Notes: generated by a model from the sequence alone, not told the origin. A stretch of DNA of 64,000 bases from Candidatus Omnitrophota bacterium (GCA_903843285.1 CAIMPC010000010.1:968-64967); one strand, 5' to 3'. Positions 1,247 to 48,488 are shown, counted from the stretch's first letter. Numbers and translations: made by a program.

Positions 1247-1269
1247 TAGACCGTGATTTAGTTAAACAT

Positions 1270-1509
1270 ATGACCAGCGATATAAAAAGAGACCTCGGCG
1301 AACAGCCAATAGCGAAGATCATAGCTATCCACGGATTAAAGGCCTCAGACTTAGTGGCGAGCTCGACCAGGCAAATCACCTATAAGATGATAAGCCGTGC
1401 AGTTAAGGGCAGACGGTTGACACCGAATGTCCAATCCAAGATTCTTAATGCCCTTAATAATGCTGTCGGCAAACAGTACCGGATTCAGGATATTTTTAAC
1501 TACAAATAA
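1270..1509 (+). CDS. hypothetical small protein (79 aa)
   Basis: Intact ORF in an intergenic slot, co-oriented with neighbours. No recognisable motif. Confidence 0.4.
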   Translation: MTSDIKRDLGEQPIAKIIAIHGLKASDLVASSTRQITYKMISRAVKGRRLTPNVQSKILNALNNAVGKQYRIQDIFNYK

Positions 1510-1518
1510 AAGGAACAT

Positions 1519-27944: not shown

Positions 27945-30557
27945 ATGAAGAAATCGATATTTATGCCATTCATTAGACATGCGGTGCTTGTAGTAGCGTT
28001 AGTTTTATTGCCCTCGGCGGTATCCTGCCAAAACCTTTCATGGGAAGACCTGAGCAAGCAGTCGTGGGAATTAAACAAACAGGGTAACTTCTCCGGAGCC
28101 ATCAGCACGGCCAAAAAAGCGCTCGAAGCGGCTACGGAACAATTTGGCCCAAAACATGCAAATGTGGTGATATCCCTTAACTCCATAGCGGCCATGTACA
28201 AAACCCATGAGAAGTATAAGGAATCGGAAGCCTACTATAAGAAGGCGCTTGCTATGCGGACTCTCTCAATAAGCTGTCCCGTTATAAAACAGGATTACCT
28301 GGACATATACACGGCGATGAAAAACCTCTATTCCGTATACAAGATTCAAAATAAATTACCTCAGGCCGGAAAAGTATTGAGACGCGCGTTAACTATTGAA
28401 GAAAAAGTGACGGGGAAAGATTCTCCGGAAGTAGAGAGAGACATCAGAGACCTGATCTCCATATATGAGGCCCAGGACAAACCTCAGCGGACGGAGCCAT
28501 TATATAAGAGGATTATAGAGATCGAAGAGAAGCGCCATGGGCCAAACAGCGCTGAGGTGGCCAATACCATGAATAGCCTCGCCGCCGCATATCGGTCGAT
28601 GAAACGATATGATGAGGCCGAGCCGCTATTAAAGAAGATAATAACCCTGGCCGAAAGCACGCATGGCGCCCAGGATGGCACTTTACCGACATTTCTGAAT
28701 AATCTGGGTACCGTACACTTCTACCGGGGGAAATATCAGGAGGCCGAGGAGCTATTTAAGAGAGCGCTGGCTATGGATGAAAAGATGTTCGGGGTAAATA
28801 GTCCCGAGATTGTCACCGATCTTAATAATCTCGCGACACTGTATTCTTATGAAAAGAGATATCAGGAGGCCGAGGAGCGCTACCATAGGGTGCTGGATAT
28901 AAATGAAAAGTCATTCGGACCCGAAAGCGTTAATTCTATAAAGTATATGAATAATCTTGCGGCTATATTTGCATATCAGCGAAAGTATAATGATGCAGAG
29001 AGCCTTTACAACAGAGTGATAGCTATAAGCGAGAAAGCGTATGGGCCGGATCATCCGGCTATGGCATCCGCTCTTAATAATCTGGCGTTTCTATACCAAA
29101 AACAGGCCGATTATGCAAGAGCCGAACAGCTCTATTTACGCTCCGCGCTGATATGCGAGAAGGATCTGGATAAAAATTATTCTATAATGAAGACCGCTAT
29201 AAATAACCTGGTAGCCATATACAGGATTCAGGACAGGCAGGCCGAAACGGCACAGGCGCTAAAAAGATTGATAGATATGAGCGATAACGCAAAAAAAAAA
29301 GAAAACCCTGACTCGATCCCCGCACTAAAAGATCTTATAACGATATATACCACCCAGAATAATTTTAAGATGATGGAGGAAGTGTACCTCAGGCTGATCC
29401 TGGTGGAGGAGAATGTATTCGGCACCGATAGCGCGGAGCTGGCCGATACTATGAATAAGTTGGCCGGCATTTATAGATCCCAGCGAAAGTTATCGCAGGC
29501 CGAGCCGCTCTTAAAAAGAGTGGTTCAGATAGCGGAGAGCGTAGACGGCCTGTACAGCACAAGCCTTTCCAGCTACCTCAATAATTTAGGGGTCCTATAT
29601 TTTTATCAGGGAAAGTTTACAGAGGCCGAGCCGCTCCTAAGAAAAGCGCTTACCATAGACGAGAAAGCGCTGGGAAAGAATGATCCGGGGATAGTAGAAG
29701 ATCTGAATAATCTTGCCGTAGTCTATTCGTTCCTTAAGAAGTATAAGGAAGCAGAGATCCTTTATGGTCGTGTTATAGGGATATCTTCGAAGGTATCCGG
29801 CGAGGATAGCTTAGCGGCGATATCGGCGACCAACAAGCTGGCGTACGTCTACGAGTCGGAAGAAAAATATGAAGAGGCGGCAAAGCTTTACACCAAGGTT
29901 ATAGAGATATGCGCTAAGGATGAGGCCAAGAACTATCCTGAGCTCAGGATTTCGCTAAACAGCCTCGCTAATATTTACAGCGGTATGGGTAAGCATGAAG
30001 AGGCTGAGCCATACCTTAAGAGGGCGCTCGCTCTCGAGGAGAAGATTGCCGGTAAAGGCAGTATGGATTATGCCGAGACGCTGAACTATTTGGCCAGGAT
30101 CTACAGGGCCCAGGGGCGATATTCGGAGGCGGAGGCGGCATTAAAGCAAGTTATAGAAACCGGGGAAAAGATGATCGGTTCAGATAACCCGGTGATGAGG
30201 CCATATTTGGATAATCTGGCTACAGTATATTTTTATCAGAAAAGATATGAAGAAGCCCAGCCGCTTATGGAAAAGATATTGAGTATAGATGAAAAGATTG
30301 GTGGGAAGGAGAATCCTGAGCTGGTAAAAGATTTGAATAATCTGGCTACGTTATATTCAAAGTTAAATAGACTCGAGGATGCAGAGTTGTTATATTCCCG
30401 AGCCGCATACCTATGCCAAAACTTTAGCAGTGATCCTAAGGAACTCGCAAATATTCTCGAAAATATGGCAAACATGTACGAAATGGTAAATAATTCTGAA
30501 AGAGCCGAAAATTTACGTTTGCAAGCAGAATCAATTCGTAAACCAGCCAAGCCTTGA
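27945..30557 (+). CDS. tetratricopeptide-repeat protein (TPR_12 / kinesin-light-chain-type repeats), secreted or lipoprotein
   Basis: Signal peptide with possible lipobox (LLPSAVSC). About 17 tandem ~42-aa units of form NNLAxLYxxxGxYxEAEPLxKRALxIxEKxxG. Confidence 0.85.
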   Translation: MKKSIFMPFIRHAVLVVALVLLPSAVSCQNLSWEDLSKQSWELNKQGNFSGAISTAKKALEAATEQFGPKHANVVISLNSIAAMYKTHEKYKESEAYYKKALAMRTLSISCPVIKQDYLDIYTAMKNLYSVYKIQNKLPQAGKVLRRALTIEEKVTGKDSPEVERDIRDLISIYEAQDKPQRTEPLYKRIIEIEEKRHGPNSAEVANTMNSLAAAYRSMKRYDEAEPLLKKIITLAESTHGAQDGTLPTFLNNLGTVHFYRGKYQEAEELFKRALAMDEKMFGVNSPEIVTDLNNLATLYSYEKRYQEAEERYHRVLDINEKSFGPESVNSIKYMNNLAAIFAYQRKYNDAESLYNRVIAISEKAYGPDHPAMASALNNLAFLYQKQADYARAEQLYLRSALICEKDLDKNYSIMKTAINNLVAIYRIQDRQAETAQALKRLIDMSDNAKKKENPDSIPALKDLITIYTTQNNFKMMEEVYLRLILVEENVFGTDSAELADTMNKLAGIYRSQRKLSQAEPLLKRVVQIAESVDGLYSTSLSSYLNNLGVLYFYQGKFTEAEPLLRKALTIDEKALGKNDPGIVEDLNNLAVVYSFLKKYKEAEILYGRVIGISSKVSGEDSLAAISATNKLAYVYESEEKYEEAAKLYTKVIEICAKDEAKNYPELRISLNSLANIYSGMGKHEEAEPYLKRALALEEKIAGKGSMDYAETLNYLARIYRAQGRYSEAEAALKQVIETGEKMIGSDNPVMRPYLDNLATVYFYQKRYEEAQPLMEKILSIDEKIGGKENPELVKDLNNLATLYSKLNRLEDAELLYSRAAYLCQNFSSDPKELANILENMANMYEMVNNSERAENLRLQAESIRKPAKP

Positions 30558-30593
30558 CAATAGTATAATCATTAGGTATACTCGGTAACAAAA

Positions 30594-30606
30594 GTTAGTT
30601 ACTAAC
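30594..30606 (+). promoter_or_regulatory. perfect palindrome GTTAGT-T-ACTAAC, candidate operator
   Basis: Lies about 20-40 nt upstream of the ROK-like regulator gene. The half-site AAGTTAGT recurs twice around the promoter of the giant gene (41602-41609 and 41665-41672). Confidence 0.35.
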
Positions 30607-30627
30607 GTTACGGCATTATTTCTTTAT

Positions 30628-31770
30628 ATGTATGATGGGGTTAAGAAAATGAAAATAGAGAGAAATTTTATATTTACCTGCCACACATTAAATGATAAAG
30701 AGAAGAGAAGTCTTTTGATTTATGATTTAATAAGGAAAAGAGGAATTATATCGAGATCGGAAATAACGAAAGCCACCGGGATAAACGCCGTATCAGTCTC
30801 TAACTATATAAATAATTTTATAGAAAAGAAGATGGTGCTGGAGAAGGGATTTGATATTTCGACGGGTGGTAGAAAACCTGAGCTTATTGAGCTTAATACT
30901 GAGGCGAACCATGTAATAGGTATCGATATCGGTAAAAGAGAAATAAGAGGAGCGATCGCGGATCTGGGGATTAATATAAAGGTAAGGAAACAGATCCATA
31001 GGCCTGCCGACAGAGAAGTTTCATCCGAGGTAGTTCGTTTAGTGGAGGATATGATAGCGGCATCGAAGATCAATATCACCGATATAAAGGCTGTCGGGCT
31101 GGGGCTATCCGATGAGAAATTCATTAATGTAGTGGCGGCTATAAAAAAGAAGACCGGAATCGATGCGTTTTACGGCCCGTCCGCCGCATGCGCAGCGTTT
31201 GCCGAGAGACGTATTAATCAAAGCGCGGATGTGGATAACCTTCTCTACATATATTCTGATGTCGGCGAGGGCGTCATGATGCACCAGGATATATATCTGA
31301 GCGCTTCGGAAGACGAGAGCCTCATGGAAGGCAAGCTCAGATACTTAAGGCCGTGGGACGACTATCTTAGTATTGCTGAGAGCGCCAGACGGGAAGTGGC
31401 CAGAGGCGTAGGGACAAAGATGGTGAGCCTCGCTAAGGGCAATGTTAATAATATCACCAGAGAAGATGTCATGGCGTGCGCCAGGGCAGACGACGAAGTT
31501 GCTCTTAATATAGTGCTTAGCGCCGGCATTAACCTTGGGCTCAGGATAGCATACCTGGTGAATCTTTTTGCTCCGGAAATAGTAGTTATAGGCGGCGGGG
31601 CGCAGGACGCCGGTGATATAATATTGATGCCGCTTAAAAAGACGGTGGACAGACTTGCGTTCCGCGACCATCTTAAGGGATTAAAGATAATTACCAGCAC
31701 GCTGGGAGAGGACGCAGTCGATATCGGCGCGGCTTCTCTGGCCATAAGAGAAGTATTTATTAAAGCATAG
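30628..31770 (+). CDS. ROK-like transcriptional regulator (N-terminal winged HTH + ASKHA sugar-kinase fold; Zn-Cys motif absent)
   Basis: HTH region LIRKRGIISRSEITKATGINAVSVSNYIN. Kinase-fold glycine loop VIGIDIGKREIRGAI. No CxCGxxGC motif, so probably a non-kinase regulator. Confidence 0.55.
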   Translation: MYDGVKKMKIERNFIFTCHTLNDKEKRSLLIYDLIRKRGIISRSEITKATGINAVSVSNYINNFIEKKMVLEKGFDISTGGRKPELIELNTEANHVIGIDIGKREIRGAIADLGINIKVRKQIHRPADREVSSEVVRLVEDMIAASKINITDIKAVGLGLSDEKFINVVAAIKKKTGIDAFYGPSAACAAFAERRINQSADVDNLLYIYSDVGEGVMMHQDIYLSASEDESLMEGKLRYLRPWDDYLSIAESARREVARGVGTKMVSLAKGNVNNITREDVMACARADDEVALNIVLSAGINLGLRIAYLVNLFAPEIVVIGGGAQDAGDIILMPLKKTVDRLAFRDHLKGLKIITSTLGEDAVDIGAASLAIREVFIKA

Positions 31771-38420: not shown

Positions 38421-41400
38421 ATGAGCCTTCCATCTTTTTCCATAAAAAGACCTGTATTCATGCTCATGGTCTATTCCGTGCTGATCATGTCCGGCGTGAT
38501 CTCCTTGACCCGTCTTCCGGTCGAACTGTACCCTAATATAAGCTTCGGCGAGATAAGCGTAATAATATCGGTGCGCGGCGGTATGCCGCCCACGGAAGTG
38601 GAATCGCTTGTCTCTAAGCCCGTGGAGGATGCTGTCGGAACAGTCAGTCATCTTCAGGAGATGCTCTCCATCTCTAAGGAGGGTGAATCTACCGTAGTCC
38701 TCAGTTTCGATCCCGGAATCAATATGAACTTCGCCGCCCTCGATGTGCGCGAAAAATTTGCCCGCGTAAAGAATAAGCTCCCGAAAGAGATAGAGAAACC
38801 TGTCATAGCGCAGTTTAAGCGTTCCGACGTGCCGATCATGATTCTCGCCGTAACCAGCTTAAGACGAACCACAGAAGATATCCGTAAGATCGTAGACGAG
38901 AGCGTCAGAGAGGCTATAAAGCGTATATCGGGTGTCGCTGATGTCGAGGTTGCCGGCGGCAGGGAGCGTAAGATACTTATAGAGGCCGATCAGAGGAAGA
39001 TGGCCGCATGCAATCTTTCGCTCGACAGGGTCATATCGATGGTGGGCGCCAATAATCTTAACCTGCTCTCCGGCGATATAGAGCGCGTTAAAGATAAGTA
39101 CCTGATAAGGACCATCGGATTATATAAGACGGTCGACGATATAAAGAGCATCCCTGTTTCGAGCTCGCCCGACGGGACTATAGTGCGCCTTAGGGATGTG
39201 GCGACCGTGCTCGATTCATATCTCGAGCCTGCAGGCTATGCCCGCGTTAATGTGCGGCCGGTCGTCTCCATATACGTGCAGAAAGAATCGAATGCCAATA
39301 CCATTAAGGTCGCAAAGGCAGTGGAAGATGAGGTCGAGAAGATTAAAGAGCGCCTGCCAAAAGATATCCAGGTGGCTACGACGAGCAATCAGGCTAATTT
39401 TATAAAGAGCGCTATTGAGAATCTGAAGGATGCGCTCTTAAAGGGCGCGGCCCTGGTCATGATGGTTTTAATACTCTTCCTGATACGCCTAACCAATAAA
39501 CAGATAGCGTTGATGGTGGCCGCGCTGGTGGCTATTGCCCTGATGCCGGTCATCTTGCTTTACCCGGTCCTCATCATAGTCATTATAGCGTTTATACTTG
39601 TACACAGGATACGGTCTGTCGCGATAGTGTCGTCGGCCATCCCGATATCCGTTATCATAACATTTACCTTCATGCTTGCCATGAAACTTACGCTGAATTT
39701 CATGACGCTCTTTGGCCTTGCCCTCGGAGTGGGAATGTTGGTCGACAACGCCATCGTAGTATACGAAAATATAGTGCGTAAGCACGAACAGGGACTGAGG
39801 GGCATTCCTGCGGCTATCGCAGGCACCGAAGAGGTTTGGGTAGCGATCCTGGCCGGCACGCTTACGCATGTGTGCGTATTCTTCCCCATGGTATTCGTAG
39901 GGTCCGAGATAAAACTTTTGTACGGGGGCGTGGCATGGACCGTTACGCTATCATTGCTGGTCTCTCTCTTCGTAGCCATAACCGTAGTGCCGTTATTCTC
40001 TTCCAGAATCCCGATATCGATAGAGCACATAAGCTTTCTCGAACATGTATACCGGATACAGCGCAAAGGCGTTATCTATTTTATGAGAAATTCAAGACGC
40101 ATATTTATTTGCGCCATAGCGTTATTTCTTGTTGCGCTATTTTTCTTTACAAAGCTCGGAATGGAATTCCTCGGCACGACAGAGCAGGGTAAATTTACAA
40201 TATTCATAGAACTGCCTACGGGCGCAAAACTTGACGCTACGGATGTCGTAGTGAAAAAAGTAGAAGCTATCGTTAAAGAGATTCCCGAGGTTAAGACATT
40301 CTCGTCCAGGGTAGAACCGTGGTCGAGTAAGGTCTACGTGGAATTGGTCGACGTCAATAAGAGAAAGAGGTCTGTGGCAGAGGTCATCGAGAGCCTTCGT
40401 CCTAAGACCGAGAAGCTTAGGCCGGCATTCATCTATTTTGAAGAAGAGCAGGAGGTCGGCACTAAGGAGATCATAGTGGAGCTCTTCGGTTACGATTACA
40501 CCACACTAAGAGAGGCCGCGATATCGATCGCCACCCGTCTGGGTTCAGTGAAAGGTTTCGCGGACACTAAGATAAGGATGAGAGAGGGGCGTCCGGAACT
40601 CGGATTGAAGGTCGACAGAAAGAAGACCGGAATATTCGATATGACAGTTACCGATGTCGCAGATATGGTGCATGCGCAGATGAGGGGCCTGCGGGCAACA
40701 TTGTTCCATACGGCATCCAGCGAGGTCGAGACGATCGCCAGGCTGGACGAGAAATATAGAAAGACATTTAAGGATCTGCACAAGCTCATACTTAATAATA
40801 AGAACGGCGACAGAGTGTACCTGGACCAGGTGACGGAATTTAAATACGGCCTCGGTCCCAGCGAAGTATGGAGGAAGAACAAGGCCAGGATGATACAGGT
40901 GAGCGCTACCATCGGAAAGATCCCTCTCAGTAAAGCCGCCGAGGAGGCTAAGAAAGCATTGGGCGACCTGAAACTGCCGGAAGGTTATTACTACAGGTTC
41001 GGTGGTAATTATCCTACAATGGTAGCCACCCAAAAACAGATATATCCGATACTATTACTCACAGTGGTGTTGATCTATCTGGTATTGGCGTCTCTGTTTG
41101 AATCATACTACCAGCCATTTATTATCATGGTGGCAGTGCCGCTGGCGCTTATAGGGGTGGTCATAGCGTTGTATGCCACCGGAAAATCTGTAGGTATGGG
41201 CGTCTTTGTGGGCATGATAATGTTGGGAGGAATTGTCGTCAATAATTCGATTCTATTGATAGATCATGCCAATAACCTACGCAAAGAGAAGATGAATCAC
41301 ATTAAAGCCATTATCCTCGCCTCGCGAGACCGCCTACGACCTATACTCATGACAACTTGCACGACCCTATTTGGTTTACTCCCAATGGCTATAAGCACTT

Positions 41401-41579
41401 CTGAAGGATCCAACCTGTGGAGTCCGCTCGCGATAACGGTTATGGGCGGGCTTATAAGCTCGACAATATTAACGCTTCTAATTGTTCCCAGTGTTTACGT
41501 GGCATCCGAGAACGCCGGGGCCCGCCTCAAAGCATTTATGGAGAAAGTTCGGATATTTCCCCGCCGTCCGAAGGGATGA
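38421..41579 (+). CDS. RND efflux permease (AcrB/HAE1-like), second tandem copy, 1052 aa
   Basis: Same architecture as the first copy (RPVFMLMVYSVLIMSG). Starts 2 nt after the previous stop; MdtBC-like tandem arrangement. Confidence 0.9.
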   Translation: MSLPSFSIKRPVFMLMVYSVLIMSGVISLTRLPVELYPNISFGEISVIISVRGGMPPTEVESLVSKPVEDAVGTVSHLQEMLSISKEGESTVVLSFDPGINMNFAALDVREKFARVKNKLPKEIEKPVIAQFKRSDVPIMILAVTSLRRTTEDIRKIVDESVREAIKRISGVADVEVAGGRERKILIEADQRKMAACNLSLDRVISMVGANNLNLLSGDIERVKDKYLIRTIGLYKTVDDIKSIPVSSSPDGTIVRLRDVATVLDSYLEPAGYARVNVRPVVSIYVQKESNANTIKVAKAVEDEVEKIKERLPKDIQVATTSNQANFIKSAIENLKDALLKGAALVMMVLILFLIRLTNKQIALMVAALVAIALMPVILLYPVLIIVIIAFILVHRIRSVAIVSSAIPISVIITFTFMLAMKLTLNFMTLFGLALGVGMLVDNAIVVYENIVRKHEQGLRGIPAAIAGTEEVWVAILAGTLTHVCVFFPMVFVGSEIKLLYGGVAWTVTLSLLVSLFVAITVVPLFSSRIPISIEHISFLEHVYRIQRKGVIYFMRNSRRIFICAIALFLVALFFFTKLGMEFLGTTEQGKFTIFIELPTGAKLDATDVVVKKVEAIVKEIPEVKTFSSRVEPWSSKVYVELVDVNKRKRSVAEVIESLRPKTEKLRPAFIYFEEEQEVGTKEIIVELFGYDYTTLREAAISIATRLGSVKGFADTKIRMREGRPELGLKVDRKKTGIFDMTVTDVADMVHAQMRGLRATLFHTASSEVETIARLDEKYRKTFKDLHKLILNNKNGDRVYLDQVTEFKYGLGPSEVWRKNKARMIQVSATIGKIPLSKAAEEAKKALGDLKLPEGYYYRFGGNYPTMVATQKQIYPILLLTVVLIYLVLASLFESYYQPFIIMVAVPLALIGVVIALYATGKSVGMGVFVGMIMLGGIVVNNSILLIDHANNLRKEKMNHIKAIILASRDRLRPILMTTCTTLFGLLPMAISTSEGSNLWSPLAITVMGGLISSTILTLLIVPSVYVASENAGARLKAFMEKVRIFPRRPKG

Positions 41580-41618
41580 TTCACTCATGTTAAGCACAAA
41601 AAAGTTAGTCAAATAGTA

Positions 41619-41647
41619 TTGACATCCCCTGCACAATATGGTATCAT
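41619..41647 (+). promoter_or_regulatory. strong sigma70-like promoter TTGACA-17-(TGg)TATCAT
   Basis: TTGACA at 41619-41624, exact 17-nt spacer, TATCAT at 41642-41647 preceded by TGG (extended -10). About 70 nt upstream of the giant ORF start. Confidence 0.55.
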
Positions 41648-41715
41648 CCACCTAATACAATAGAAAGTTAGTAGCGATATTAACCATGTTCGCAAAATAT
41701 TCCCAAGGAGAAAAC

Positions 41716-44700
41716 ATGAGATTCTGGAAAAAGACCGTTTCGATTCTTTTGGTTCATGCCTTTTTGCTGTCTGGTATTACGACCGGTTTGATGCCATCCG
41801 CTATTGCCACAACTCTCGACAAAACTTCCCCTATAATAGAGGTAGCTACAACCCCCGATAGCATCGTCATTCCTAAAGATTGCGGTATGATTAAGTCCAA
41901 ATTTATCGGTAAGGGCGACAAGCTCATAGTTCATATCCAGGATGCCCACTGTAATTACGAAGCCCAGTCCAATATAGCCGGTATCATAGAGAATCTGGTG
42001 AAGAACAATGGTTTGAGCCTCGTATCGGTGGAAGGCGCAGATGGCATGATCGATACTTCGTGGTTTAAAGCATTTCCTGACGCTGAGGTTCGAAAAGAAG
42101 TAGCCAACTACTTCATGAAGAAGGGCGAGATCACAGGCCCGGAATTTCTTTCAATAACCACAGACTATCCGATAAAACTTTTTGGCGCAGAAACGCGCGA
42201 TTATTATATTCAGAACCTCAATGCATTTACGACCAGCTACCCCCTTAAAGGCGAGACCGAGAAGTATCTTAATAATATCAAGGCCGCATTAACTAAACTC
42301 CAGGCACTCATCTACAATGCCGATCTTAAAGCTATGGCCGCCAAGTCAAATGAATATGAAGCTAAGAAAATGCAGTTCAACGACTACGTACGTTTTTTGC
42401 AGGATGAGGCTCAGAAGCATAAAATTAACTTAAGGCAGTACGAAGACCTGTTTAAGCTGATCAACGTCCTGATATATGAAAAGAAGATAGATTTCAGTGT
42501 AACGGATAAAGAGAGAAGCGCTCTCATAGATGAGATGAGTAAGGCCGTCTCAAAGGATGTGCTCACAGAGCTTGTAAATAAATCCATAGCTTTTAAAGTT
42601 AATAAGATTTCATCTGCGGAATATTATGCTTACGTCAGAGGTCTCGCCCAGAAGAATAAAGTGGATTTACTCGAGAAGTATCCCAACCTCTACAACTACA
42701 TCATATATAATTCAGTCTACTCCAGGATCAACAACGAAGGCCTGTTTAACGATATAAAGAAGCTCGAGATCGCGATAAAAGAGAAGCTCTTTGAGAACGA
42801 AGACCAGAGAACCCTCGAGAAGCTCTCCCGCCACATAGATACGTTAATAGGTCTGGTAAATATAAAGCTTCTTAACGATGACTTTGACTATTACAAAGCG
42901 AATAAGGCCGAATTTGCCCCAGAGGCATTCTCAGATTTTATAAAGGCAAAGACGATACAGTTTGGACTTGCCTACGAGATGGATCCTCCAGCCGATGCTA
43001 TCGCTAAAAATATTGACAGACTCGAAGATTTCTATGCCATCGCGATAAAGCGTGATAAGGCGATGGTCGATAACACTCTCGAAGCTATGAATAAGACGGG
43101 GAGTAAGATAGCGGTGCTGGTCACCGGAGGCTTTCACTCGGAAGGCATGATGAAGCTCCTCGAGAGGCAGGGCGTCTCCCATATGGTCGTATGCCCGAGC
43201 ATAACTAAGGAAGCGCAGACGCCGTATATCCAGATACTTATGAACCAGCGGACATCGTTCGAGGATATTCTGACCACCCCGAAAGAGGCTGTGAAAAAGA
43301 ATATGCTGGCGCCTCTGCCGCGTACATGGGCGACGGGAGAAGTTTACGCCGAATTAAAGGGAAAATCGGATATTTTGAATGATGGAGATTTGGAGAATTT
43401 CAGAAACGAATGGATAGAAAGAAACGTTTCGGAATGGCTTAGTGCCCGCCGCAATATTGTATTTGGAAACAGGGCTTCTACCAGGAGTGTTTTAGAAGAT
43501 GCCTTTAAGCTGGATTTCATGAAATCCGCCACGGAAGTCTACGGAGTAGACAGAACTGCAGAGGCCCAGGCACAAAGACTTTGCGCGGAAGTAATGAAGT
43601 CTTCGGCATTCGAGAGAGTATTTAACAGCATGATGCCCGCTACCGGCGTTATAGGCGTAATGCCGCCGACACGGCCGACCAGCGCTCAGGGTGCTGTGAT
43701 GGTGGTAAACGGAGAGCTTAGCCCGGAACAGACAGCTCTCGTTAATCAGGCGATAAGAGATGACTTTGAAACAGTCCTTGTTAATGCGAATGAACCAACG
43801 TATACGTATAAAATTCCATCAAGTGAAATTACGGTCGAGATTTTTAGAATACCATCTCTCGAAGCTTGCGATAATTTTCTTTTTGCTCACCCCGGTCACG
43901 GCGGGGCCGTGCGCGCCATCGGTAGGAATCGTATATATATGTCTCCTTTAAACTATGAGAGACTTCGAAGACTCAAAGAGTTCGCGCCAGAGGCCTATTC
44001 GTCGTTCTTTAACCATGAGGCATATCATCTCGTGAATCCTAATGCCACCGAAGCGGCCGCAGAAGCAGCGTCTAAAACAAATAATGTCAGAGTGGCGCTT
44101 GAGAATATGGCGAAAGCTGATGTCGCAGCGGTAAGAATGAATTTAGGGCAGACCCCTATCGGTGAGACGATCTACAGATTCTCTAATGCGTTAGTGCCTT
44201 CGGCCAGAGGGCTTATAGGCCCCACCAACACCAGGGAAGAACTCCCGCGGCGTTTATCGGCTCTCTTCATAGGTGCTAATGGTCGAGGAACCGATAGCTT
44301 ATATAAAGCTTTAATGGTCCTTGAATCGCAAGGTGAAGTTAAAATAGAGATGCTTAAAAGCGGCACTGCTATATTCAGCAAATCGACGCCTGTCTCGCTC
44401 GCGGAAGCGTACTCTTCACCCGAATCATTCGAAGCTTATATGACACAGCATCTGGCCAGATTAAGTGTGGCCATACCGGAACTATCACAGCTCATGGAAG
44501 GTTATAATAGCTGGAGAAATGAAATGATAGCGCCCAAAGAAGCGCAACTTAACCTCCTGCAAATACAGCCGGGCAAAGAGCAGGCAGTAAAGGAACTAAG
44601 AGACGAGATTGACAATCTGATAAAACCAAAAGTTGCGGCAATGGAAGACCTTATTGCGACGCGTTTTAACCAACCACTCGCCGAAGGATATGTTGGTTTG

Positions 44701-47400
44701 CTCAAAGGCATTACCAGTGAAAGAAACTTCCTTAGAGAGATCCCAACCCTTGAAGAGTTTATGAAGTCACCAGCATATACGGAAACTCTCGATAGAGCCC
44801 GGGAACTATTCTTGAGTCCTACATGTGGAGACCTCGATGTGTACGCAGGCGCGGCCTCAAGACTTTTTGGTGAAGGTCAAAGAGCTGATACGACCAGGTC
44901 TTTTGCCGCTCATGATGTTTATCAGATGGCGGCATCCATGGGCAAGGCGATACCTTCGCATGCCATTTTGGGTGAGAGCATCATGACGCGCATGGCTGTA
45001 CAGAAATGGATCGATATCGAAGCTGATTTGAAGGAAAAGTATAATGGATCCAAAACTCCTGAGGCTATTGTAGCTCAGAGGCAGGCTATTATTGCTACGA
45101 AGCCCTGGATAATAGTGATCAATGATGAAAGCGGTGTTCCGCTATTAAAAGAAATGGTCGAGAATAACCATTATGGGTATAATCCTGAAAATGTTGTATT
45201 TGTGGTTCAACCTACTTTTAATGGATACGGATACGATAATAACGGAAAGCCGGTGATGCTTAAAAACACGAAGCCGAATCCGGCAGGTCACGGATCTGCC
45301 ACTCTGCAGTCCATGGCTCCGGGGAGGGCATTCTGGGTAGGTTCGAATGGAGCGATTCATAATATAGAGGAAGATGCCGAGGCCTATCTTAAAGGAAGGA
45401 CTGGTGCAAACTTTTGGATACAGGGGCGAGTTAACGATATGATAAAACTCGGATACACTACCAGGCCCCACCAGCTATTTTCTTCAACTCACGAACTTGA
45501 CATGGGTGTTATGGCTTTGGCCTTGAGTAGAATGGGAAACATTGACAAGCTGGAGGAAGGTAAAAATGCAATACTGGAACAGGTAGCCCCCGATAGCAGA
45601 ATAAAAGGCGGCACACCTTTAGTCACTACCTCACGATCTGATGGGTTTTTAATAGAAGGTGTGGCTATGAATCCGGAGACTAAGAAGGTAGTTCTGATTC
45701 CAGATAATCCGCAGAACAGGTTCTATATTTATTATAAGGGCCTTGCGCTACGGGAGATGAAGAAGCAGGGCCTACCTGTATATTTCAGGTTCCGCGATGG
45801 AGCTATTTACCCTGAGACTGTTACCGGGGATCTGACTATGCTGAAGCGCGTTAATCCGGGCTATGTTATGGCTAAACGTCCGCTCGACGACTATAAAAAT
45901 GAGGCGACAATAGATAATGGCCTTAACGCGGCGGACCACCAGGATAAGAATCCCAAATTTCGGGCCGCCACAGAAGAGCTCAAAACATCCAGAAAGAAAG
46001 ATGTGACTATAACGGGCCTTAATAAGGTTCCAGACTTTGCTAAACATCTTGAACCGGCTCCTGAAGCTCCATCTGCGCGCGCGAAAGTTAATGCCCAGAA
46101 TCGCGTCGCCTTAAAGGCTGTAGAAAAACCGGCGTCCGGACTTACGCGAGAAAAAACCGCTGTTCTTGTCCCGCCCTCGTCAGGGACTTTGGAGGCGGAA
46201 GTATACGCGGCATATATGGCCTTCGAGAGACCGTATGATGTTACGGTAAATGCGTTTAGGGGTAGCATAAATAAGCCAGAGCTCCTGAGGGCCCTTATTG
46301 CAAAATTTCCAGGAACAAATAATGTCAGCACTTTAAACAATATGGAGAGATCAGGTATTGCCGTTGTTACAAATATGAATGAAAGTAGCTATGATCTCAC
46401 CGACAACTTCTTCAAATCTGATGTATTAAATAGGTTCGTAATGCTTCAGGCCGGCAGGGAGCAAATAACGGATATTAAGGCTCAAGCTTCTTCCATGTCG
46501 GATGTAGAACGGATAATAGTTGATTCTATGAATGCGGAGCTCTTTGTAAATGCATTTATGCCGGAAGGCGCTAATGTATTGCCGCCATCTGAGAAGATAG
46601 AGACTCAATATGAAGTGGTCATCGCTTTAAGCGAGGGTTTTAGGGATAAGGGCGGTAGCTCAGAACATTCCGTATTCCCATCGGTAATAGATAGATGGCT
46701 ACAAGCCAATAACCCCGAAGAGTATTGGAAATATAGAAATATAGGAAGATACACGAAAGAATTAAGGCAGAGGCTTGAGGCGCTCAGGGTCAGCGGCAAT
46801 GCCATGGAAAATAAGGCTATAGTTATTCTCCATGATAGAATGATTGACTCTACAGGCGTAGCTCAGGCCGCAGAATTTGCCGTGGAGAGATACCTTGGTG
46901 GTTCGGTTATCGTGGTTCGCGGGTCCGGAAGCATGCTCATTAGTCACGGCATAGAAGAGTATAATAACCTGATCAGAAATACTAATGCGCCTAAGAATGC
47001 CGCCATAATCGCCCTCACCGGTACCAATAGAACATCGATCACAGGAAAAGATAGGGCAGATCTGTTGAGGGTAATGATGGCCGGTAATGCGGCGGCTGAG
47101 AAGATCGGCGGCCTTCGGCCTCTAAGCGTCTTACTGCAGGTGGACGACTCAGAGGGTGAGATGTCTACGATAGAATTATATAATGCGGCCGTGACAATAG
47201 GATTCAATCTGGGAGCTCAAAATATTTTGGATTGCCTGAGGCGCATAGCGTTGACAGATAGCGGAGAGAGATTTACCGATGCCGTTATGGATGAGATAAT
47301 CAAAACAGGTTTTATCAGGCTGAAACCGATAGCACCGATCAATCCTAACCAGATTGACGAAGTCCGCCGAGCGGAGGCTGTGGCATTAAGATCGCTGTAA
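41716..47400 (+). CDS. giant multidomain protein (1,894 aa): N-terminal signal/anchor, TraB/GumN/Tiki-like domain, HExxH motif, degenerate UDPGP-like nucleotidyltransferase domain, uncharacterised C-terminal region
   Basis: Start at MRFWKK with a GGAG RBS 8 nt upstream. The ORF-track start at 41686 has no RBS. Uninterrupted 5.7-kb ORF. Motifs are detailed in the findings. Confidence 0.8.
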   Translation: MRFWKKTVSILLVHAFLLSGITTGLMPSAIATTLDKTSPIIEVATTPDSIVIPKDCGMIKSKFIGKGDKLIVHIQDAHCNYEAQSNIAGIIENLVKNNGLSLVSVEGADGMIDTSWFKAFPDAEVRKEVANYFMKKGEITGPEFLSITTDYPIKLFGAETRDYYIQNLNAFTTSYPLKGETEKYLNNIKAALTKLQALIYNADLKAMAAKSNEYEAKKMQFNDYVRFLQDEAQKHKINLRQYEDLFKLINVLIYEKKIDFSVTDKERSALIDEMSKAVSKDVLTELVNKSIAFKVNKISSAEYYAYVRGLAQKNKVDLLEKYPNLYNYIIYNSVYSRINNEGLFNDIKKLEIAIKEKLFENEDQRTLEKLSRHIDTLIGLVNIKLLNDDFDYYKANKAEFAPEAFSDFIKAKTIQFGLAYEMDPPADAIAKNIDRLEDFYAIAIKRDKAMVDNTLEAMNKTGSKIAVLVTGGFHSEGMMKLLERQGVSHMVVCPSITKEAQTPYIQILMNQRTSFEDILTTPKEAVKKNMLAPLPRTWATGEVYAELKGKSDILNDGDLENFRNEWIERNVSEWLSARRNIVFGNRASTRSVLEDAFKLDFMKSATEVYGVDRTAEAQAQRLCAEVMKSSAFERVFNSMMPATGVIGVMPPTRPTSAQGAVMVVNGELSPEQTALVNQAIRDDFETVLVNANEPTYTYKIPSSEITVEIFRIPSLEACDNFLFAHPGHGGAVRAIGRNRIYMSPLNYERLRRLKEFAPEAYSSFFNHEAYHLVNPNATEAAAEAASKTNNVRVALENMAKADVAAVRMNLGQTPIGETIYRFSNALVPSARGLIGPTNTREELPRRLSALFIGANGRGTDSLYKALMVLESQGEVKIEMLKSGTAIFSKSTPVSLAEAYSSPESFEAYMTQHLARLSVAIPELSQLMEGYNSWRNEMIAPKEAQLNLLQIQPGKEQAVKELRDEIDNLIKPKVAAMEDLIATRFNQPLAEGYVGLLKGITSERNFLREIPTLEEFMKSPAYTETLDRARELFLSPTCGDLDVYAGAASRLFGEGQRADTTRSFAAHDVYQMAASMGKAIPSHAILGESIMTRMAVQKWIDIEADLKEKYNGSKTPEAIVAQRQAIIATKPWIIVINDESGVPLLKEMVENNHYGYNPENVVFVVQPTFNGYGYDNNGKPVMLKNTKPNPAGHGSATLQSMAPGRAFWVGSNGAIHNIEEDAEAYLKGRTGANFWIQGRVNDMIKLGYTTRPHQLFSSTHELDMGVMALALSRMGNIDKLEEGKNAILEQVAPDSRIKGGTPLVTTSRSDGFLIEGVAMNPETKKVVLIPDNPQNRFYIYYKGLALREMKKQGLPVYFRFRDGAIYPETVTGDLTMLKRVNPGYVMAKRPLDDYKNEATIDNGLNAADHQDKNPKFRAATEELKTSRKKDVTITGLNKVPDFAKHLEPAPEAPSARAKVNAQNRVALKAVEKPASGLTREKTAVLVPPSSGTLEAEVYAAYMAFERPYDVTVNAFRGSINKPELLRALIAKFPGTNNVSTLNNMERSGIAVVTNMNESSYDLTDNFFKSDVLNRFVMLQAGREQITDIKAQASSMSDVERIIVDSMNAELFVNAFMPEGANVLPPSEKIETQYEVVIALSEGFRDKGGSSEHSVFPSVIDRWLQANNPEEYWKYRNIGRYTKELRQRLEALRVSGNAMENKAIVILHDRMIDSTGVAQAAEFAVERYLGGSVIVVRGSGSMLISHGIEEYNNLIRNTNAPKNAAIIALTGTNRTSITGKDRADLLRVMMAGNAAAEKIGGLRPLSVLLQVDDSEGEMSTIELYNAAVTIGFNLGAQNILDCLRRIALTDSGERFTDAVMDEIIKTGFIRLKPIAPINPNQIDEVRRAEAVALRSL

Positions 47401-47493
47401 AAAAATGGGGGTCATGTCTTCACACTTCACACTTGACAGTTGCTATTTATTTTGATACCCTCTCCTCACGGCCCTATTAATAAGGAACATAAC

Positions 47494-47640
47494 ATGCTAT
47501 TGGCATTAAGAACATTCTTCGGATCCAGGCTTGGTATATATCTGTTTTTATCGGTAGTTTTATCCTGCCTTTGGTATATAGCAAAGCATCTTGATTTGAT
47601 TGAAGTTTCGGAAAATTTATCGGAAAAGCAGGACGTATAG
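47494..47640 (+). CDS. possible small membrane peptide (49 aa)
   Basis: MLLALRTFFGSRLGIYLFLSVVLSCLWYIAK, with AAGGA 7 nt upstream. May be spurious. Confidence 0.3.
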   Translation: MLLALRTFFGSRLGIYLFLSVVLSCLWYIAKHLDLIEVSENLSEKQDV

Positions 47641-47651
47641 AAGAACCATTG

Positions 47652-47660
47652 TGGTATAAT
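47652..47660 (+). promoter_or_regulatory. extended -10 element TGGTATAAT
   Basis: Ends 6 nt before the ATG at 47667, implying a leaderless or very short-leader transcript for the ferredoxin-nitroreductase gene. Confidence 0.3.
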
Positions 47661-47666
47661 CTTCCC

Positions 47667-48488
47667 ATGATTAAATTCACTGTCGATATTTCGGAATGCG
47701 TTAGTTGCGGTTCGTGCGTAGCGATATGTCCGATCAAAATACTGGAGCTCGATGCCGAGAAACATCCTAAGGCTATCGAGGGACGTGAAGAGTATTGTAT
47801 TAATTGTGGCCATTGTGCATGCGTTTGCCCGAAGGGCGCGCTGTCGCTCGAATCGATGCCTATAGACGAGCTTAAGGAACTGCCCGAAGGCTGGCGCCTC
47901 TCACCGAAAGAGATAGAGCCATTCTTTAAAGGCCGCAGATCTATTCGTGCTTACAAAGAAGACCTGGTCGAGAAACCCGTAATAGAGAAGATTATAGATA
48001 TCGCCAGATATGCACCGTCCGGTATAAACCGTCAGTCGGTATATTGGGCTGTTGTTCACGATCCTAAGAAAGTCCAGGAGCTATCAGGGCTCACTATGGA
48101 GTGGGTGAAGACGTTTATAAATGAGAAGTCACCGATCGCCGAGTCACTGCGATTCGAGGGATTGGTTAAGTCTTGGGAGTCGGGTGAGGATCCTATCTGC
48201 CGCCACGCACCGCATGTGGCTATGGTATATGGCCTTAAGGAAGATATGCTTGCGCATGCGGCGTGCACCATCGCTATGGCCCACTTTGAACTGGTAGCGC
48301 TGCCGTTTGGGTTAGGTGCTTGCTGGGCGGGATATCTTCAGATGGCTTTGAGCGCGTATGCGCCGGCGCGAAAATCGGCCGGGCTATCATCTAAGATTAC
48401 CTGTCACGGTGCGATGTTATTTGGAAGACCGAAATACGAATTCAACTGCATACCCTCGAGAAACGACCCCAGAATTATCTGGCGCTGA
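47667..48488 (+). CDS. 4Fe-4S ferredoxin domain fused to nitroreductase-family domain
   Basis: Two CxxCxxCxxxCP clusters (CVSCGSCVAICP, CINCGHCACVCP), then the nitroreductase fold (RRSIRAYKED...APSGINRQS). The TTG start at 47649 in the ORF track was rejected in favour of the ATG. Confidence 0.8.
   Translation: MIKFTVDISECVSCGSCVAICPIKILELDAEKHPKAIEGREEYCINCGHCACVCPKGALSLESMPIDELKELPEGWRLSPKEIEPFFKGRRSIRAYKEDLVEKPVIEKIIDIARYAPSGINRQSVYWAVVHDPKKVQELSGLTMEWVKTFINEKSPIAESLRFEGLVKSWESGEDPICRHAPHVAMVYGLKEDMLAHAACTIAMAHFELVALPFGLGACWAGYLQMALSAYAPARKSAGLSSKITCHGAMLFGRPKYEFNCIPSRNDPRIIWR

Follow-up and report, generated by a model that had tools for sequence, protein, structure and literature searches.

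A gene of 1,894 codons in Candidatus Omnitrophota was found to belong to a very large, uncharacterized protein family in which a conserved head and tail enclose exchangeable enzyme-like cargo. The window, meaning the whole stretch of DNA analyzed, was 64,000 nucleotides long (GCA_903843285.1 CAIMPC010000010.1:968-64967). The product is best explained as an exported, possibly self-processing polyprotein that would handle nucleotide-sugars or sugar-phosphates, within a head-cargo-tail family essentially restricted to Omnitrophota. This reading is given a probability of about 0.55. The original prediction had presented the protein as an orphan combination of a TraB/GumN/Tiki-like domain, an HExxH motif and a UDP-glucose-pyrophosphorylase-like domain. 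With 267 relatives, 157 loci and 9,502 head clusters, the combination is instead one permutation of a family-wide modular scheme.

The gene was read as a single open reading frame without internal stops, closed by a stop codon at 47398-47400. A second possible start, the ATG at 41686, would give 1,904 aa; both starts, and the two lengths predicted from them, were confirmed by the ORF listing. Every feature that the original prediction had placed in the sequence was found in its position. Frameshifts joining separate genes had been raised as a concern, and a single gene was found. Gene calls on 12 independent metagenome contigs, drawn from several samples, gave the identical 1,894-aa protein, and the reading frame is therefore no artefact of assembly or frameshift. 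A fusion of separate genes by mis-assembly is almost inconceivable, as the modules are also contiguous in many relatives and the GC content of the gene (0.459) is uniform with that of the window (0.464). A foreign origin of the gene was rejected, GC and GC3 being unremarkable. No tandem repeats were found in the DNA of the gene. An RNA element was likewise rejected, as the Rfam scan of the gene was empty. The features are listed in Table 1.

Table 1. Coordinates of the gene, its modules and its upstream elements in the window.
Feature	Position (nt)	Strand	Evidence
AAGTTAGT half-site, 5' of the -35 hexamer	41602..41609	+	exact match
Putative sigma-70-like promoter, TTGACA-17-TATCAT with upstream TG	41619..41647	+	consensus match only
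Second AAGTTAGT half-site, 3' of the -10 hexamer	41665..41672	+	exact match
CDS, 1,894 aa	41716..47400	+	ORF listing, translation; AAGGAG at 41705-41710, 5' of the ATG at 41716; identical protein (P0001) on 12 contigs
Predicted Sec-type signal peptide or signal anchor, aa 1-31 (MRFWKK, uncharged stretch, AIA|TT)	41716..41808	+	hydrophobicity, relatives
Module A (head), Ere/ChaN/TraB/TIKI-superfamily alpha/beta core	41809..43320	+	predicted structure; residues D76, H78, E106, R446, H474
Linker, conserved in a subset of relatives only	43321..43662	+	BLAST coverage
Module B, small HExxH (zincin-like) domain: H725-P-G727, H767-E-A-Y-H771, E779	43663..44151	+	alignment
Module C, UDPGP-fold sugar-1-phosphate nucleotidyltransferase-like domain, aa 884-1440	44365..46035	+	AF2, Foldseek, invariant motifs
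Module E, segment of unassigned fold	46228..46740	+	BLAST match to P0029 and P0032 only
Module D (tail), family-specific, aa ~1676-1894, ends ...IRLKPIAPINPNQIDEVRRAEAVALRSL	46741..47397	+	family HMM, alignment

The first homology search returned 267 relatives. All 119 listed non-self matches share aa 1 to ~535 of the query, and their cargo domains vary. A profile of the head matched 9,502 clusters at 50% identity with E ≤ 1e-3, and 6,136 with E ≤ 1e-30; almost all of the named clusters are from Omnitrophota. The query scored 816 bits against this profile. Of the 150 clusters listed, almost all have the head at the N-terminus or close to it. In species-representative genomes 157 loci were found, and among the 80 listed those with a taxonomic name were almost all Omnitrophota. 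Family proteins range from 1,100 to 5,600 aa, the shortest entries being mostly truncated by contig ends. Local HMMs run on 204 family proteins placed module A in 203, module B in 74, module D in 66 (always C-terminal) and module C in 21. The query has the family layout: it begins with a signal sequence and module A and has module D at its very end. Searches with the module C sequence and with the tail alignment (A4) each gave a single new fragment and missed known relatives, which reflects a word-index limit for sub-domains and not rarity.

The Pfam cargo among the 119 listed matches comprised PGM/PMM (67), PGI (8), UDPGP (7), NTP_transferase (6) and CofD (6). Relatives also carry NDP-sugar epimerase, transaldolase and PFK modules, and PGK and ROK kinases; the cargo modules of relatives either replace that of the query or accompany it. 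Motifs resembling the PGM Ser loop (TGSHIP, SASHNP, TASHNP and variants) were present in 88 of the 204 proteins in a relaxed scan, and D-x-D-x-D-R Mg-loop motifs in 31. Judged from these two motifs, the cargo in relatives looks catalytically competent. Neither Pfam, NCBIfam nor the literature yielded a description of a head-cargo-tail family.

Against Pfam and NCBIfam the whole protein and four segments of it gave sub-threshold noise and a partial match to PF04187. The two Pfam families named as decisive in the original prediction gave nothing at E ≤ 1, whether PF01963 against the protein or PF01704 against the whole protein and the module C segment. Searches of PDB sequences with modules A, B, C and D, by phmmer and by profile, likewise gave nothing significant. 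It is thus predicted structure, not sequence profiles, that supports the domain assignments. A large repetitive adhesin was considered and rejected, since neither Pfam repeat domains (Ig-like or cadherin-type) nor DNA tandem repeats were found.

The hydrophobic signal or anchor proposed for the N-terminus was upheld. It lies at aa 7-26 and is the sole hydrophobic segment of the protein, the next-best Kyte-Doolittle 19-residue window reaching 1.26. Medians over 177 relatives are four K/R and zero D/E for the n-region and 20 residues for the uncharged stretch that follows it, which commonly closes with a small-x-small pattern such as AFA. By this pattern the family carries a conserved N-terminal signal sequence of predicted Sec type. 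It is biochemically awkward for an enzyme that depends on NTP or PPi to sit outside the cytoplasm, which counts against export.

The head was predicted to have a core of a parallel beta-sheet flanked by helices, as in the TIKI fold. It contains the motifs LIVHIQDAH (aa 70-78) and RDKAM...VTGGFHSEG (aa 446-477, nt 43051-43146), and 12 diverse relatives all keep D76-x-H78, E106, R446 and H474. The head appears to keep the acid-x-His, Glu, Arg, His constellation of the TIKI/TraB/PrgY/GumN/ChaN/Ere superfamily, in the same order and after the same strands. The spacing is RRSP-like: H78-E106 and R446-H474 are both 28, and the RRSP equivalents, in a set of two His, two Glu and Arg, are H3902-E3930 (28) and R4001-H4030 (29) (PMC6254334). 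Compared with two His, two Glu and a basic residue, the first acid of the head is Asp instead of Glu; these equivalences come from motif order and spacing, not from superposition. The core is interrupted by an all-helical insertion at aa ~159-459. Ere enzymes also have a core broken by a helical domain, but the predicted insertion, of about 300 aa, far exceeds those of known members. Secretion or an extracytoplasmic location is common in the superfamily. The head differs from the known members in giving no significant profile match to any family there and in its fusion to sugar-nucleotide enzymes, which is undescribed for the superfamily.

Of the TraB/GumN/Tiki-like domain of the original prediction, the core fold was supported by the model, and a match to PF01963 was not obtained. 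PF04187 (Cofac_haem_bdg/ChaN) scored 15.4 bits at aa 430-476 only, below the gathering threshold of 27.7 bits. A module A profile gave nothing significant against PDB sequences. Among the head's best structural neighbors are the effectors HopBA1 and RRSP. Foldseek with the whole head model was not significant, the helical insertion dominating. The top Foldseek matches of the insertion were the ClyA-family pore-forming toxins AhlB and SmhB, which were also not significant (E ≥ 0.04, probability ≤ 0.23).

Between the head and module B, at aa 536-650, the number of relatives covered by BLAST drops from 119 to about 30-65. The HEAYH pentapeptide (aa 767-771, nt 44014-44028) proved to be a genuine conserved feature as predicted, and not a chance occurrence. 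The His and Gly of the upstream H-P-G, the HExxH and the Glu at +8 are invariant in 16 aligned copies. The placement of module B relative to module C varies, the order being A-C-B-D in 11 proteins and A-B-C-D in 2. Module B is, on the alignments, a small mobile module of putative zincin type. It matched no Pfam or PDB family; single members reached PhageMetallopep (E 0.0032) and Reprolysin_5 (E 0.22), and a match to designed TPR proteins in the PDB sequence search was judged spurious.

The AF2 model of module C had a pLDDT of 86.6 and a pTM of 0.88. All of the top 50 Foldseek matches in the PDB were UDP-GlcNAc or UDP-sugar pyrophosphorylases (UAP1/AGX/USP), with E values from 2.6e-14 to 1.9e-10, a probability of 1.0 and 11-15% identity. 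The motifs run in the order of the G-loop (aa 1043-1055), NDESG (1136-1140), PxGHG (1189-1193), RVND (1238-1241), IKGG (1296-1299), NRF (1334-1336), RFRDG..Y.E.VT.D (1358-1372) and D.YK (1392-1394). The strings from which the UDPGP-like domain was first proposed lie among them: VINDES at aa 1134-1139, PAGHGS at 1189-1194, GRVNDMIKLG at 1237-1246 and RIKGGTPLV at 1295-1303. Across 12 relatives at 38-56% identity, 69 columns of module C are invariant.

Module C resembles the UDPGP family (UAP1/AGX, USP, UDP-glucose pyrophosphorylase) over the whole domain, including its N-terminal helical part. It also resembles that family in motif order, with the G-loop after beta-1 followed by (M/I)N-x-x-(T/S), P-x-G-H-G, x-x-(D/N)-(N/D), K-G-G and a late Lys. 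It differs in its low identity and missing Pfam match, in a long coiled N-terminal extension, and in sitting inside a polyprotein with predicted export where the known enzymes are free and cytoplasmic. The UDPGP-like domain of the original prediction is strong at the level of fold but did not match PF01704. Against PDB sequences a module C profile reached UAP1 only at a non-significant E of 0.4-1.6, and matches to amphiphysin and GCN4 in that search were judged spurious. From the predicted structure, module C is confidently assigned a UDP-sugar pyrophosphorylase fold that is invisible to sequence profiles.

The UDPGP nucleotide-binding loop has the signature L-x2-G-x-G-T-x-M-x4-P-K, which includes the catalytic Lys. 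The Gly-rich loop had been called degenerate on the basis of AILGESIMTRMA (aa 1083-1094), which was mis-registered. The true loop after the first beta-strand is YAGAASRLFGEGQ, and its core A-G-A-A-S-R-L-F-G is invariant across relatives, although there is no conserved Lys after it in place of the canonical P-K. Confidence in the model is low at this loop, with pLDDT below 50 at model residues 163-173. When module C was aligned by hhalign to the UDPGP domain of relative P0025, which passes the Pfam UDPGP model, LDVYAGAASRLFG was put in register with the canonical loop LELAGGRGARLGL; the alignment as a whole was not significant (E 0.088). Without the canonical Lys, module C could be inactive or have a different chemistry.

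The original prediction had found no recognizable similarity in the C-terminal ~500 aa. This was not borne out, as the region ends in the conserved family tail, which ends 0-7 residues from the C-terminus in all proteins that have it. The tail of the query aligns with 18 others, finishing at the C-terminus. A profile made from the C-termini of a neighboring, unrelated protein family matches the last ~35 residues of the tail. No Pfam or PDB relative was found for module D, and no Pfam match for module E.

Under the preferred reading, Sec would translocate the protein, which would then work at or beyond the cytoplasmic membrane. The head, the HExxH module or both may be hydrolases, whose target would be either the polyprotein itself, split into functional parts, or a peptide or ester at the envelope. 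Docking or sorting would fall to the tail. Taken together, the cargo modules would form one metabolic line, hexose-6-P <-> hexose-1-P <-> NDP-hexose. Within it module C, on its modeled fold, would interconvert NDP-sugar plus PPi and NTP plus sugar-1-P. As NTP is not supplied outside the cytoplasm, pyrophosphorolysis, the salvage direction, would be favored there. A bolder and clearly unlikely extension is that thousands of cargo-swapping variants are exported. The TIKI-like head, helical insertion and C-terminal tag would form a system for delivery or docking. It would bring sugar-phosphate and nucleotide-sugar enzymes to the cell's exterior or into host or prey cells, and the enzymes would harvest or rewire the nucleotide-sugar pools of the partner. 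NDP-sugar plus PPi would for example yield NTP and sugar-1-P, then sugar-6-P. The family would then be an extracellular or trans-cellular metabolic line and not a toxin or adhesin.

The location of the enzymes is where the alternatives diverge. The N-terminal helix might anchor a metabolon to the inner face of the cytoplasmic membrane, where NDP-sugars would be made for building the envelope or exopolysaccharide. TraB/GumN-type and "succinoglycan biosynthesis" Ere-like proteins are tied by name to exopolysaccharide clusters, which counts in favor of such a role, and cargo enzymes such as UDPGP, PFK, PGK and the ROK kinases of relatives normally need cytoplasmic NTP. In its available portion, one preprint reads many long sugar-metabolism proteins of Omnitrophota as membrane-anchored with cytoplasmic domains (bioRxiv 10.64898/2026.06.07.730766), and West-Roberts et al., likewise available in part, distrust "extracellular" calls for glycolytic domains. 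A membrane-tethered metabolon is nevertheless rather unlikely: the n-region with four K/R and no acidic residue, the ~20 uncharged residues and the small-x-small ending indicate an N-in/C-out or cleaved signal, not a C-in anchor, and no second hydrophobic segment would return the chain to the cytoplasm.

The fixed ends and exchangeable cargo of the 204 proteins, together with the signal sequence, would also suit a MARTX-like effector polyprotein. Its head and tail would carry cargo into or onto a host or prey, where sugar-nucleotide pools would be drained or rewired, with autoprocessing by the HExxH or TIKI-like modules. HopBA1 and RRSP are effectors, RRSP itself being a MARTX cargo domain, and the tail motif is common to a second long-protein family encoded next door. 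Omnitrophota have been described, in sources available in part, as ultra-small with host-dependent or predatory traits. The ClyA-like matches of the insertion point the same way, but they are not significant, and a hydrophobic hairpin is missing from the insertion. Housekeeping-type enzymes, not typical toxins, make up the cargo, and dedicated secretion genes do not flank the gene within the window. A delivered effector is distinctly improbable. A role in surface binding or adhesion, with catalytically dead enzyme folds recruited to bind sugars or nucleotide sugars, is very improbable. The loop without its Lys, the failure of the Pfam UDPGP model, the predicted export signal and an attachment role proposed for giant Omnitrophota proteins, in sources available in part, speak for it. 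Against it, the invariant columns of module C lie mostly in motifs that form the UDPGP active site, the PGM cargo of relatives retains the catalytic Ser-His loop and the Mg loop, and known adhesin domains and repeats were not found.

Multi-enzyme sugar-metabolism content is known for Omnitrophota proteins of at least 10 kaa and at least 30 kaa, according to the available parts of two preprints (bioRxiv 10.64898/2026.06.07.730766, 10.1101/2023.11.21.568195). These also describe "extracellular" glycolytic domains and propose that protease domains cleave the precursor. The Omnitrophota "Archaeovorins" and the "multi-enzyme metabolic cluster" class share with the present family the phylum, the joining of PGM/PMM, PGI, aldolase, kinases and other sugar enzymes in one chain, the puzzling predicted extracytoplasmic site and the protease-like domains suggested to cut the precursor. 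As described there, the giants have at least 10,000 or at least 30,000 aa, many transmembrane helices, SecA-like domains and C39 or S8 peptidases. Head-cargo-tail proteins, in contrast, are mid-sized and have a single N-terminal signal sequence and their own TIKI-like head, HExxH module and C-terminal tail, of which no mention was found in the available parts of the two preprints. On these sources, multi-enzyme giants of Omnitrophota are already described and the mid-size head-cargo-tail family is not.

The likeness to MARTX toxins is one of organization only, and no homology is claimed. Both have conserved ends around exchangeable enzymatic cargo and an internal protease-type domain, and a TIKI-fold domain (RRSP) is among the MARTX cargo. 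Unlike those toxins, the family lacks RTX repeats and a cysteine protease domain, has an N-terminal Sec signal instead of type I secretion, and carries central-metabolism cargo.

Omnitrophota are widespread, uncultured and ultra-small and are thought, from sources available in part, to depend or prey on other cells, and their long proteins are abundant. The gene is a compact and tractable 1.9-kaa representative of a family of at least 9,500 sequence clusters, and its module boundaries bring the role of such proteins within reach of ordinary-sized constructs. If the enzymes do work outside the cytoplasm, they would represent an unusual way of metabolizing or of exploiting a host. If they stay in the cytoplasm, signal-peptide-like N-termini can mislead localization calls across the phylum. 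Module C would in addition be a highly divergent branch of UDP-sugar pyrophosphorylases missed by sequence models.

The neighbors noted in the original prediction, OEP-MFP-RND-RND upstream and Fer4-nitroreductase downstream, are present, but they are not conserved partners. Among the 80 listed loci of 157, the RND operon was beside one relative and the nitroreductase beside none, and the beta-lactamase-like gene and the small ORF were also not conserved. A link to the efflux operon was dropped for lack of synteny with relatives. The neighborhood offers no functional help, as the neighbors in the window are unconserved.

The promoter scored 11/12 and was, as predicted, the best sigma-70-like match, within 41300-47900. 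This region holds 14 promoter-like sites against 11.3 ± 3.6 in shuffles, so their number is not raised. The promoter is flanked by half-sites as had been noted. The window has three copies of AAGTTAGT against 1.33 expected, and as 17 of 100 shuffles reach three, the count alone is not significant. AAGTTAGT is also the left arm of a 17-bp palindrome (30592-30608) that precedes the gene of a ROK-family regulator at 30628-31770. The half-sites have a putative regulatory role, and the strong putative promoter is perhaps under the upstream ROK-family regulator through them.

The start, stop and length predicted for the giant gene were borne out by an ORF check and translation, and each peptide motif quoted from it was found in its place. 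An alternative ATG at 41686 gives 1,904 aa, and database entries exist for both lengths. Gene calls on 12 contigs, drawn from several metagenomes, gave an identical 1,894-aa product. As both lengths are deposited and the product recurs on 12 contigs, the gene is not a frameshift or assembly artefact; no frameshift fusion was found and an artefactual long ORF is hardly credible. The base composition agrees with the rest of the window, and a scan of the gene gave no tandem repeats or Rfam matches. The promoter-like site was the region's best as predicted (11/12 match), with the two expected AAGTTAGT copies located either side of it.

The protein was described as an orphan. This did not hold, with at least 267 relatives in a clustered protein collection (the named ones all Candidatus Omnitrophota/Omnitrophica MAGs). 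At E≤1e-3, a profile of the N-terminal head (module A), run against 1.84 billion representative sequences, matched 9,502 clusters, of which 6,136 passed E≤1e-30. Among the 150 matches listed of the 9,502, nearly all carried module A N-terminally or close to it, in proteins of up to 5,568 aa. The module also occurs as stand-alone ~535-aa proteins on long contigs. One such Omnitrophota gene (locus L081, GCA_043821285.1, JBDRCZ010000029.1, 8001-9608) follows two same-strand genes, for a 7,803-aa Peptidase_C39 giant and a 1,277-aa protein. Species-representative genomes yielded 157 loci, with two copies of the gene type in some genomes. Most of the 80 listed were labelled Omnitrophota, and the named genera were Omnitrophota in the NCBI taxonomy. 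These 80 included a block of TPA bins labelled "uncultured Planctomycetia" (contigs of L003, L009, L013, L016, L019 and L020 among them) and one "Actinomycetes" bin (L078). Such tags probably reflect imprecise or mistaken bin naming, not true spread past Omnitrophota. Searches with internal-domain queries returned one new fragment each and missed known relatives at 40-56% identity, and domain-level rarity cannot be judged from them.

BLAST of the product against 119 listed of the 267 relatives resolved a chain of modules, each with its own distribution.

Features of the giant gene, its product and the surrounding window
Feature	Position	Strand	Details
Giant gene CDS	41716-47400	+	ATG start, AAGGAG ahead, 1,894 codons
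Promoter-like site	41619-41647		TTGACA-17-TATCAT, upstream TG
Signal region	41728-41808		family consensus ...K-x-ISLLV(I/A)QSF(I/L)(F/L)SN(I/V)AFA
Hydrophobic stretch	aa 7-26		sole one in the protein
Module A (head)	aa 1-~535		all relatives, N-terminal without exception
Helical insertion, module A	~42190-43092		no hydrophobic hairpin
Module B (HExxH)	aa ~650-812		
Module C (UDPGP-fold cargo)	aa ~884-1440		12-13 relatives
Module C invariant	aa 1046-1055		A-S-R-L-F-G-x-x-Q
Module C invariant	aa 1136-1140		N-x-E-S-G
Module C invariant	aa 1189-1193		P-x-G-H-G
Module C invariant	aa 1238-1241		R-V-N-D
Module C invariant	aa 1297-1298		(K)-G
Module C invariant	aa 1334-1336		N-R-F
Module C invariant	aa 1358-1372		R-F-R-D-G-x-x-Y-x-E-x-V-T-x-D
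Module C invariant	aa 1392-1394		D-Y-K
Module E	aa ~1505-1675		two relatives
Module D (tail)	aa ~1676-1894		always extreme C-terminus
C-terminal motif	47305-47397		~35 aa
48-aa ORF	47494-47640		first ATG, AAGGAA ahead, one hydrophobic helix
TPR protein	27945-30557		870 aa
Palindrome	30592-30608		near-perfect, 17 bp
ROK-family gene	30628-31770		380 aa, N-terminal wHTH-like segment

HMMs built from the modules' own alignments were run on 204 family proteins and matched A in 203, B in 74, D in 66 and C in 21. All D matches stopped 0-7 residues short of the C-terminus. The order A-B-C-D of the query occurred 2 times and A-C-B-D 11 times, therefore the modules are shuffled. The combination had been thought to be undescribed, and the query's order is one arrangement within this shuffled family.

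No sequence search placed module A beyond a sub-threshold Pfam match to Cofac_haem_bdg at aa 430-476 (E 0.019, segment), the ChaN family of the Tiki superfamily; a module A profile found nothing among PDB sequences. In the head alignment the first strand is followed by invariant H73/Q75/D76/A77/H78/C79/N80 and the next by E106, and R446 and G471-G-F-H474 are invariant too. These agree in order and spacing with the 2His/2Glu + Arg set of RRSP, a TIKI-fold MARTX cargo domain (PMC6254334). The H78-E106 spacing is 28 in both, and R446-H474 is 28 compared to 29 in RRSP. By modeled fold and residues, matched on motif order and spacing, module A is judged TIKI/TraB/Ere-like. Foldseek of the head model listed ClyA-family alpha-pore-forming toxin components first (AhlB, SmhB, AhlC, YaxAB), at non-significant values (E 0.04-1.4, probability ≤0.23).

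Eighteen copies of module B aligned over ~140 aa, and two relatives carry it twice. H725, G727, H767, E768, H771 and E779 were invariant in a 16-sequence alignment, including the predicted HEAYH. Profile searches left the module without an assignable Pfam or PDB family. The obvious, though unproven, interpretation of these residues is a zincin-type metallopeptidase.

The predicted UDPGP-like domain (module C) stood at the level of fold and not of profile. Pfam gave no match at E≤1, phmmer found nothing in PDB sequences, and a 12-sequence profile reached UDP-GlcNAc pyrophosphorylases no better than at E 0.4-1.6. An AlphaFold2 model on that alignment had a mean pLDDT of 86.6 and pTM of 0.88. Its top 50 Foldseek matches in the PDB were exclusively UDP-GlcNAc/UDP-sugar pyrophosphorylases (UAP1, AGX1/2, USP; E 2.6e-14 to 1.9e-10, probability 1.0, identity 11-15%), so the module is modeled as UDPGP-like. 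The alignment has 69 invariant columns, with relatives at 38-56% identity. The predicted motifs PAGHGS, GRVNDMIKLG, RIKGG and VINDES coincide with invariant columns, in the canonical UDPGP order. The Gly-rich loop called degenerate had been mis-registered. The first model beta-strand (residues 154-159) is followed by the low-pLDDT loop YAGAASRLFGEGQ (163-173), which hhalign put in line with the canonical loop LELAGGRGARLGL in P0025, a relative whose domain passes Pfam UDPGP. The conserved Lys after the loop is absent in the alignment of relatives, and for this reason a non-canonical mechanism or substrate is possible. The query resembles TIKI/Ere hydrolases and UDPGP enzymes structurally; as it falls below both Pfam thresholds, the models make it a fold-level relative only.

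Between head and tail the relatives hold recognizable Pfam domains, mapped in position in three examples. A manual count of annotations in the 119 listed relatives gave PGM/PMM domains I-IV in 67, glucose-6-phosphate isomerase in 8, UDPGP in 7, and NTP_transferase and CofD in 6 each. NDP-sugar epimerase/dehydratase, transaldolase, PFK, PGK, class II aldolase, ROK kinase, HAD and uridine kinase/PRK domains also occurred. Together with upper glycolysis, the set covers the steps that interconnect hexose-6-P, hexose-1-P and NDP-hexose. A stricter regular expression had suggested dead PGM cargo; this was overturned by a relaxed scan, which recovered Ser-His loops (TGSHIP 35 times, also SASHNP, TASHNP and variants) and D-x-D-x-D-R Mg loops.

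The N-terminus of 177 relatives with complete N-termini had an n-region with a median of 4 K/R and no D/E, then a median 20-residue uncharged stretch frequently reading ...ISLLVIQSFILSNIAFA|. These are the features of a Sec signal peptide bearing an A-x-A site or, at the least, of an N-in signal anchor, and the bulk of the query is therefore predicted to lie outside the cytoplasm. The best supported reading, at a probability of about 0.55, is an exported or envelope-tethered head-cargo-tail polyprotein. The family's architecture, folds and conservation are observed, while its localization, activity and processing are inferred. Its cargo here would be a divergent sugar-1-P nucleotidyltransferase or NDP-sugar pyrophosphorylase, and the TIKI-like and HExxH modules would be hydrolases acting on their own chain or on an envelope substrate. 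A metabolon tethered to the membrane on the cytoplasmic side would not suit the predicted topology, and is unlikely. West-Roberts et al. raise the same localization puzzle for glycolytic domains in Omnitrophota proteins of at least 30 kaa (bioRxiv 10.1101/2023.11.21.568195).

A delivered effector polyprotein of MARTX type is more doubtful still. A binding protein made of dead enzyme folds, towards which the missing Lys might point, is improbable; the PGM cargo keeps its Ser-His and Mg loops and so looks catalytically competent. What is new is the mid-size family set by head, HExxH module and tail, for which no description was found in Pfam, NCBIfam or the accessible portions of the literature searched. 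Multi-enzyme sugar-metabolism long proteins of Omnitrophota are already known, and two preprints note puzzling localization and putative self-cleaving proteases in them (bioRxiv 10.1101/2023.11.21.568195, 10.64898/2026.06.07.730766). The family signal region is unusually conserved (P0002-P0040 and other homologues), beyond generic Sec need, with polar Q, S and N inside the hydrophobic core, and may be recognized by a specific partner.

No relatives of module D were detected in Pfam or the PDB. It has the conserved ending ...IRILPKIxPVNxxExxEAYKAAxxALRSL-COOH. Upstream DNA was long enough in 48 related loci, and in 37 of these the gene ahead lies on the same strand and encodes another long multi-enzyme protein, without modules A and B, with cargo such as a dCMP deaminase/HD/HAD set, PGM or an APH-type kinase. 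These genes end 137-265 bp before the head genes (L001-L076), and their products end similarly to module D (...YLPKxxPIDYxxEIxxYRxAxxLLxxAA-COOH). An HMM of their last 45 residues had 13 head-family matches (i-E<0.01), 12 at the extreme C-terminus. The ~35-aa motif common to both families comprises a hydrophobic strand, LP(K/R), xxP(I/V)(D/N), a helix and small terminal residues. It may be a docking or sorting tag. The giant gene itself has no such upstream partner in the window.

The neighbors in the original prediction were present as described but are not conserved; an RND pump lay near the head gene in 1 of the 80 loci listed (L078) and the others in none. The predicted tiny membrane peptide corresponds to a 48-aa ORF, which is in neither gene-call set (JGI contig; ENA/NCBI). 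It had no tblastn match in the 80 related loci, most of which stop short of the 3' flank of their own giant gene. A third AAGTTAGT at 30592 forms the left arm of the palindrome AAGTTAGTTACTAACGT, between a strong promoter-like site and the ROK-family gene start (30555-30608). Since this half-site is the 8-mer flanking the giant-gene promoter, the ROK regulator could also act there through a common ROK-type operator. Just upstream of the ROK gene is a protein almost wholly of TPR repeats (TPR_12, 13 stretches).
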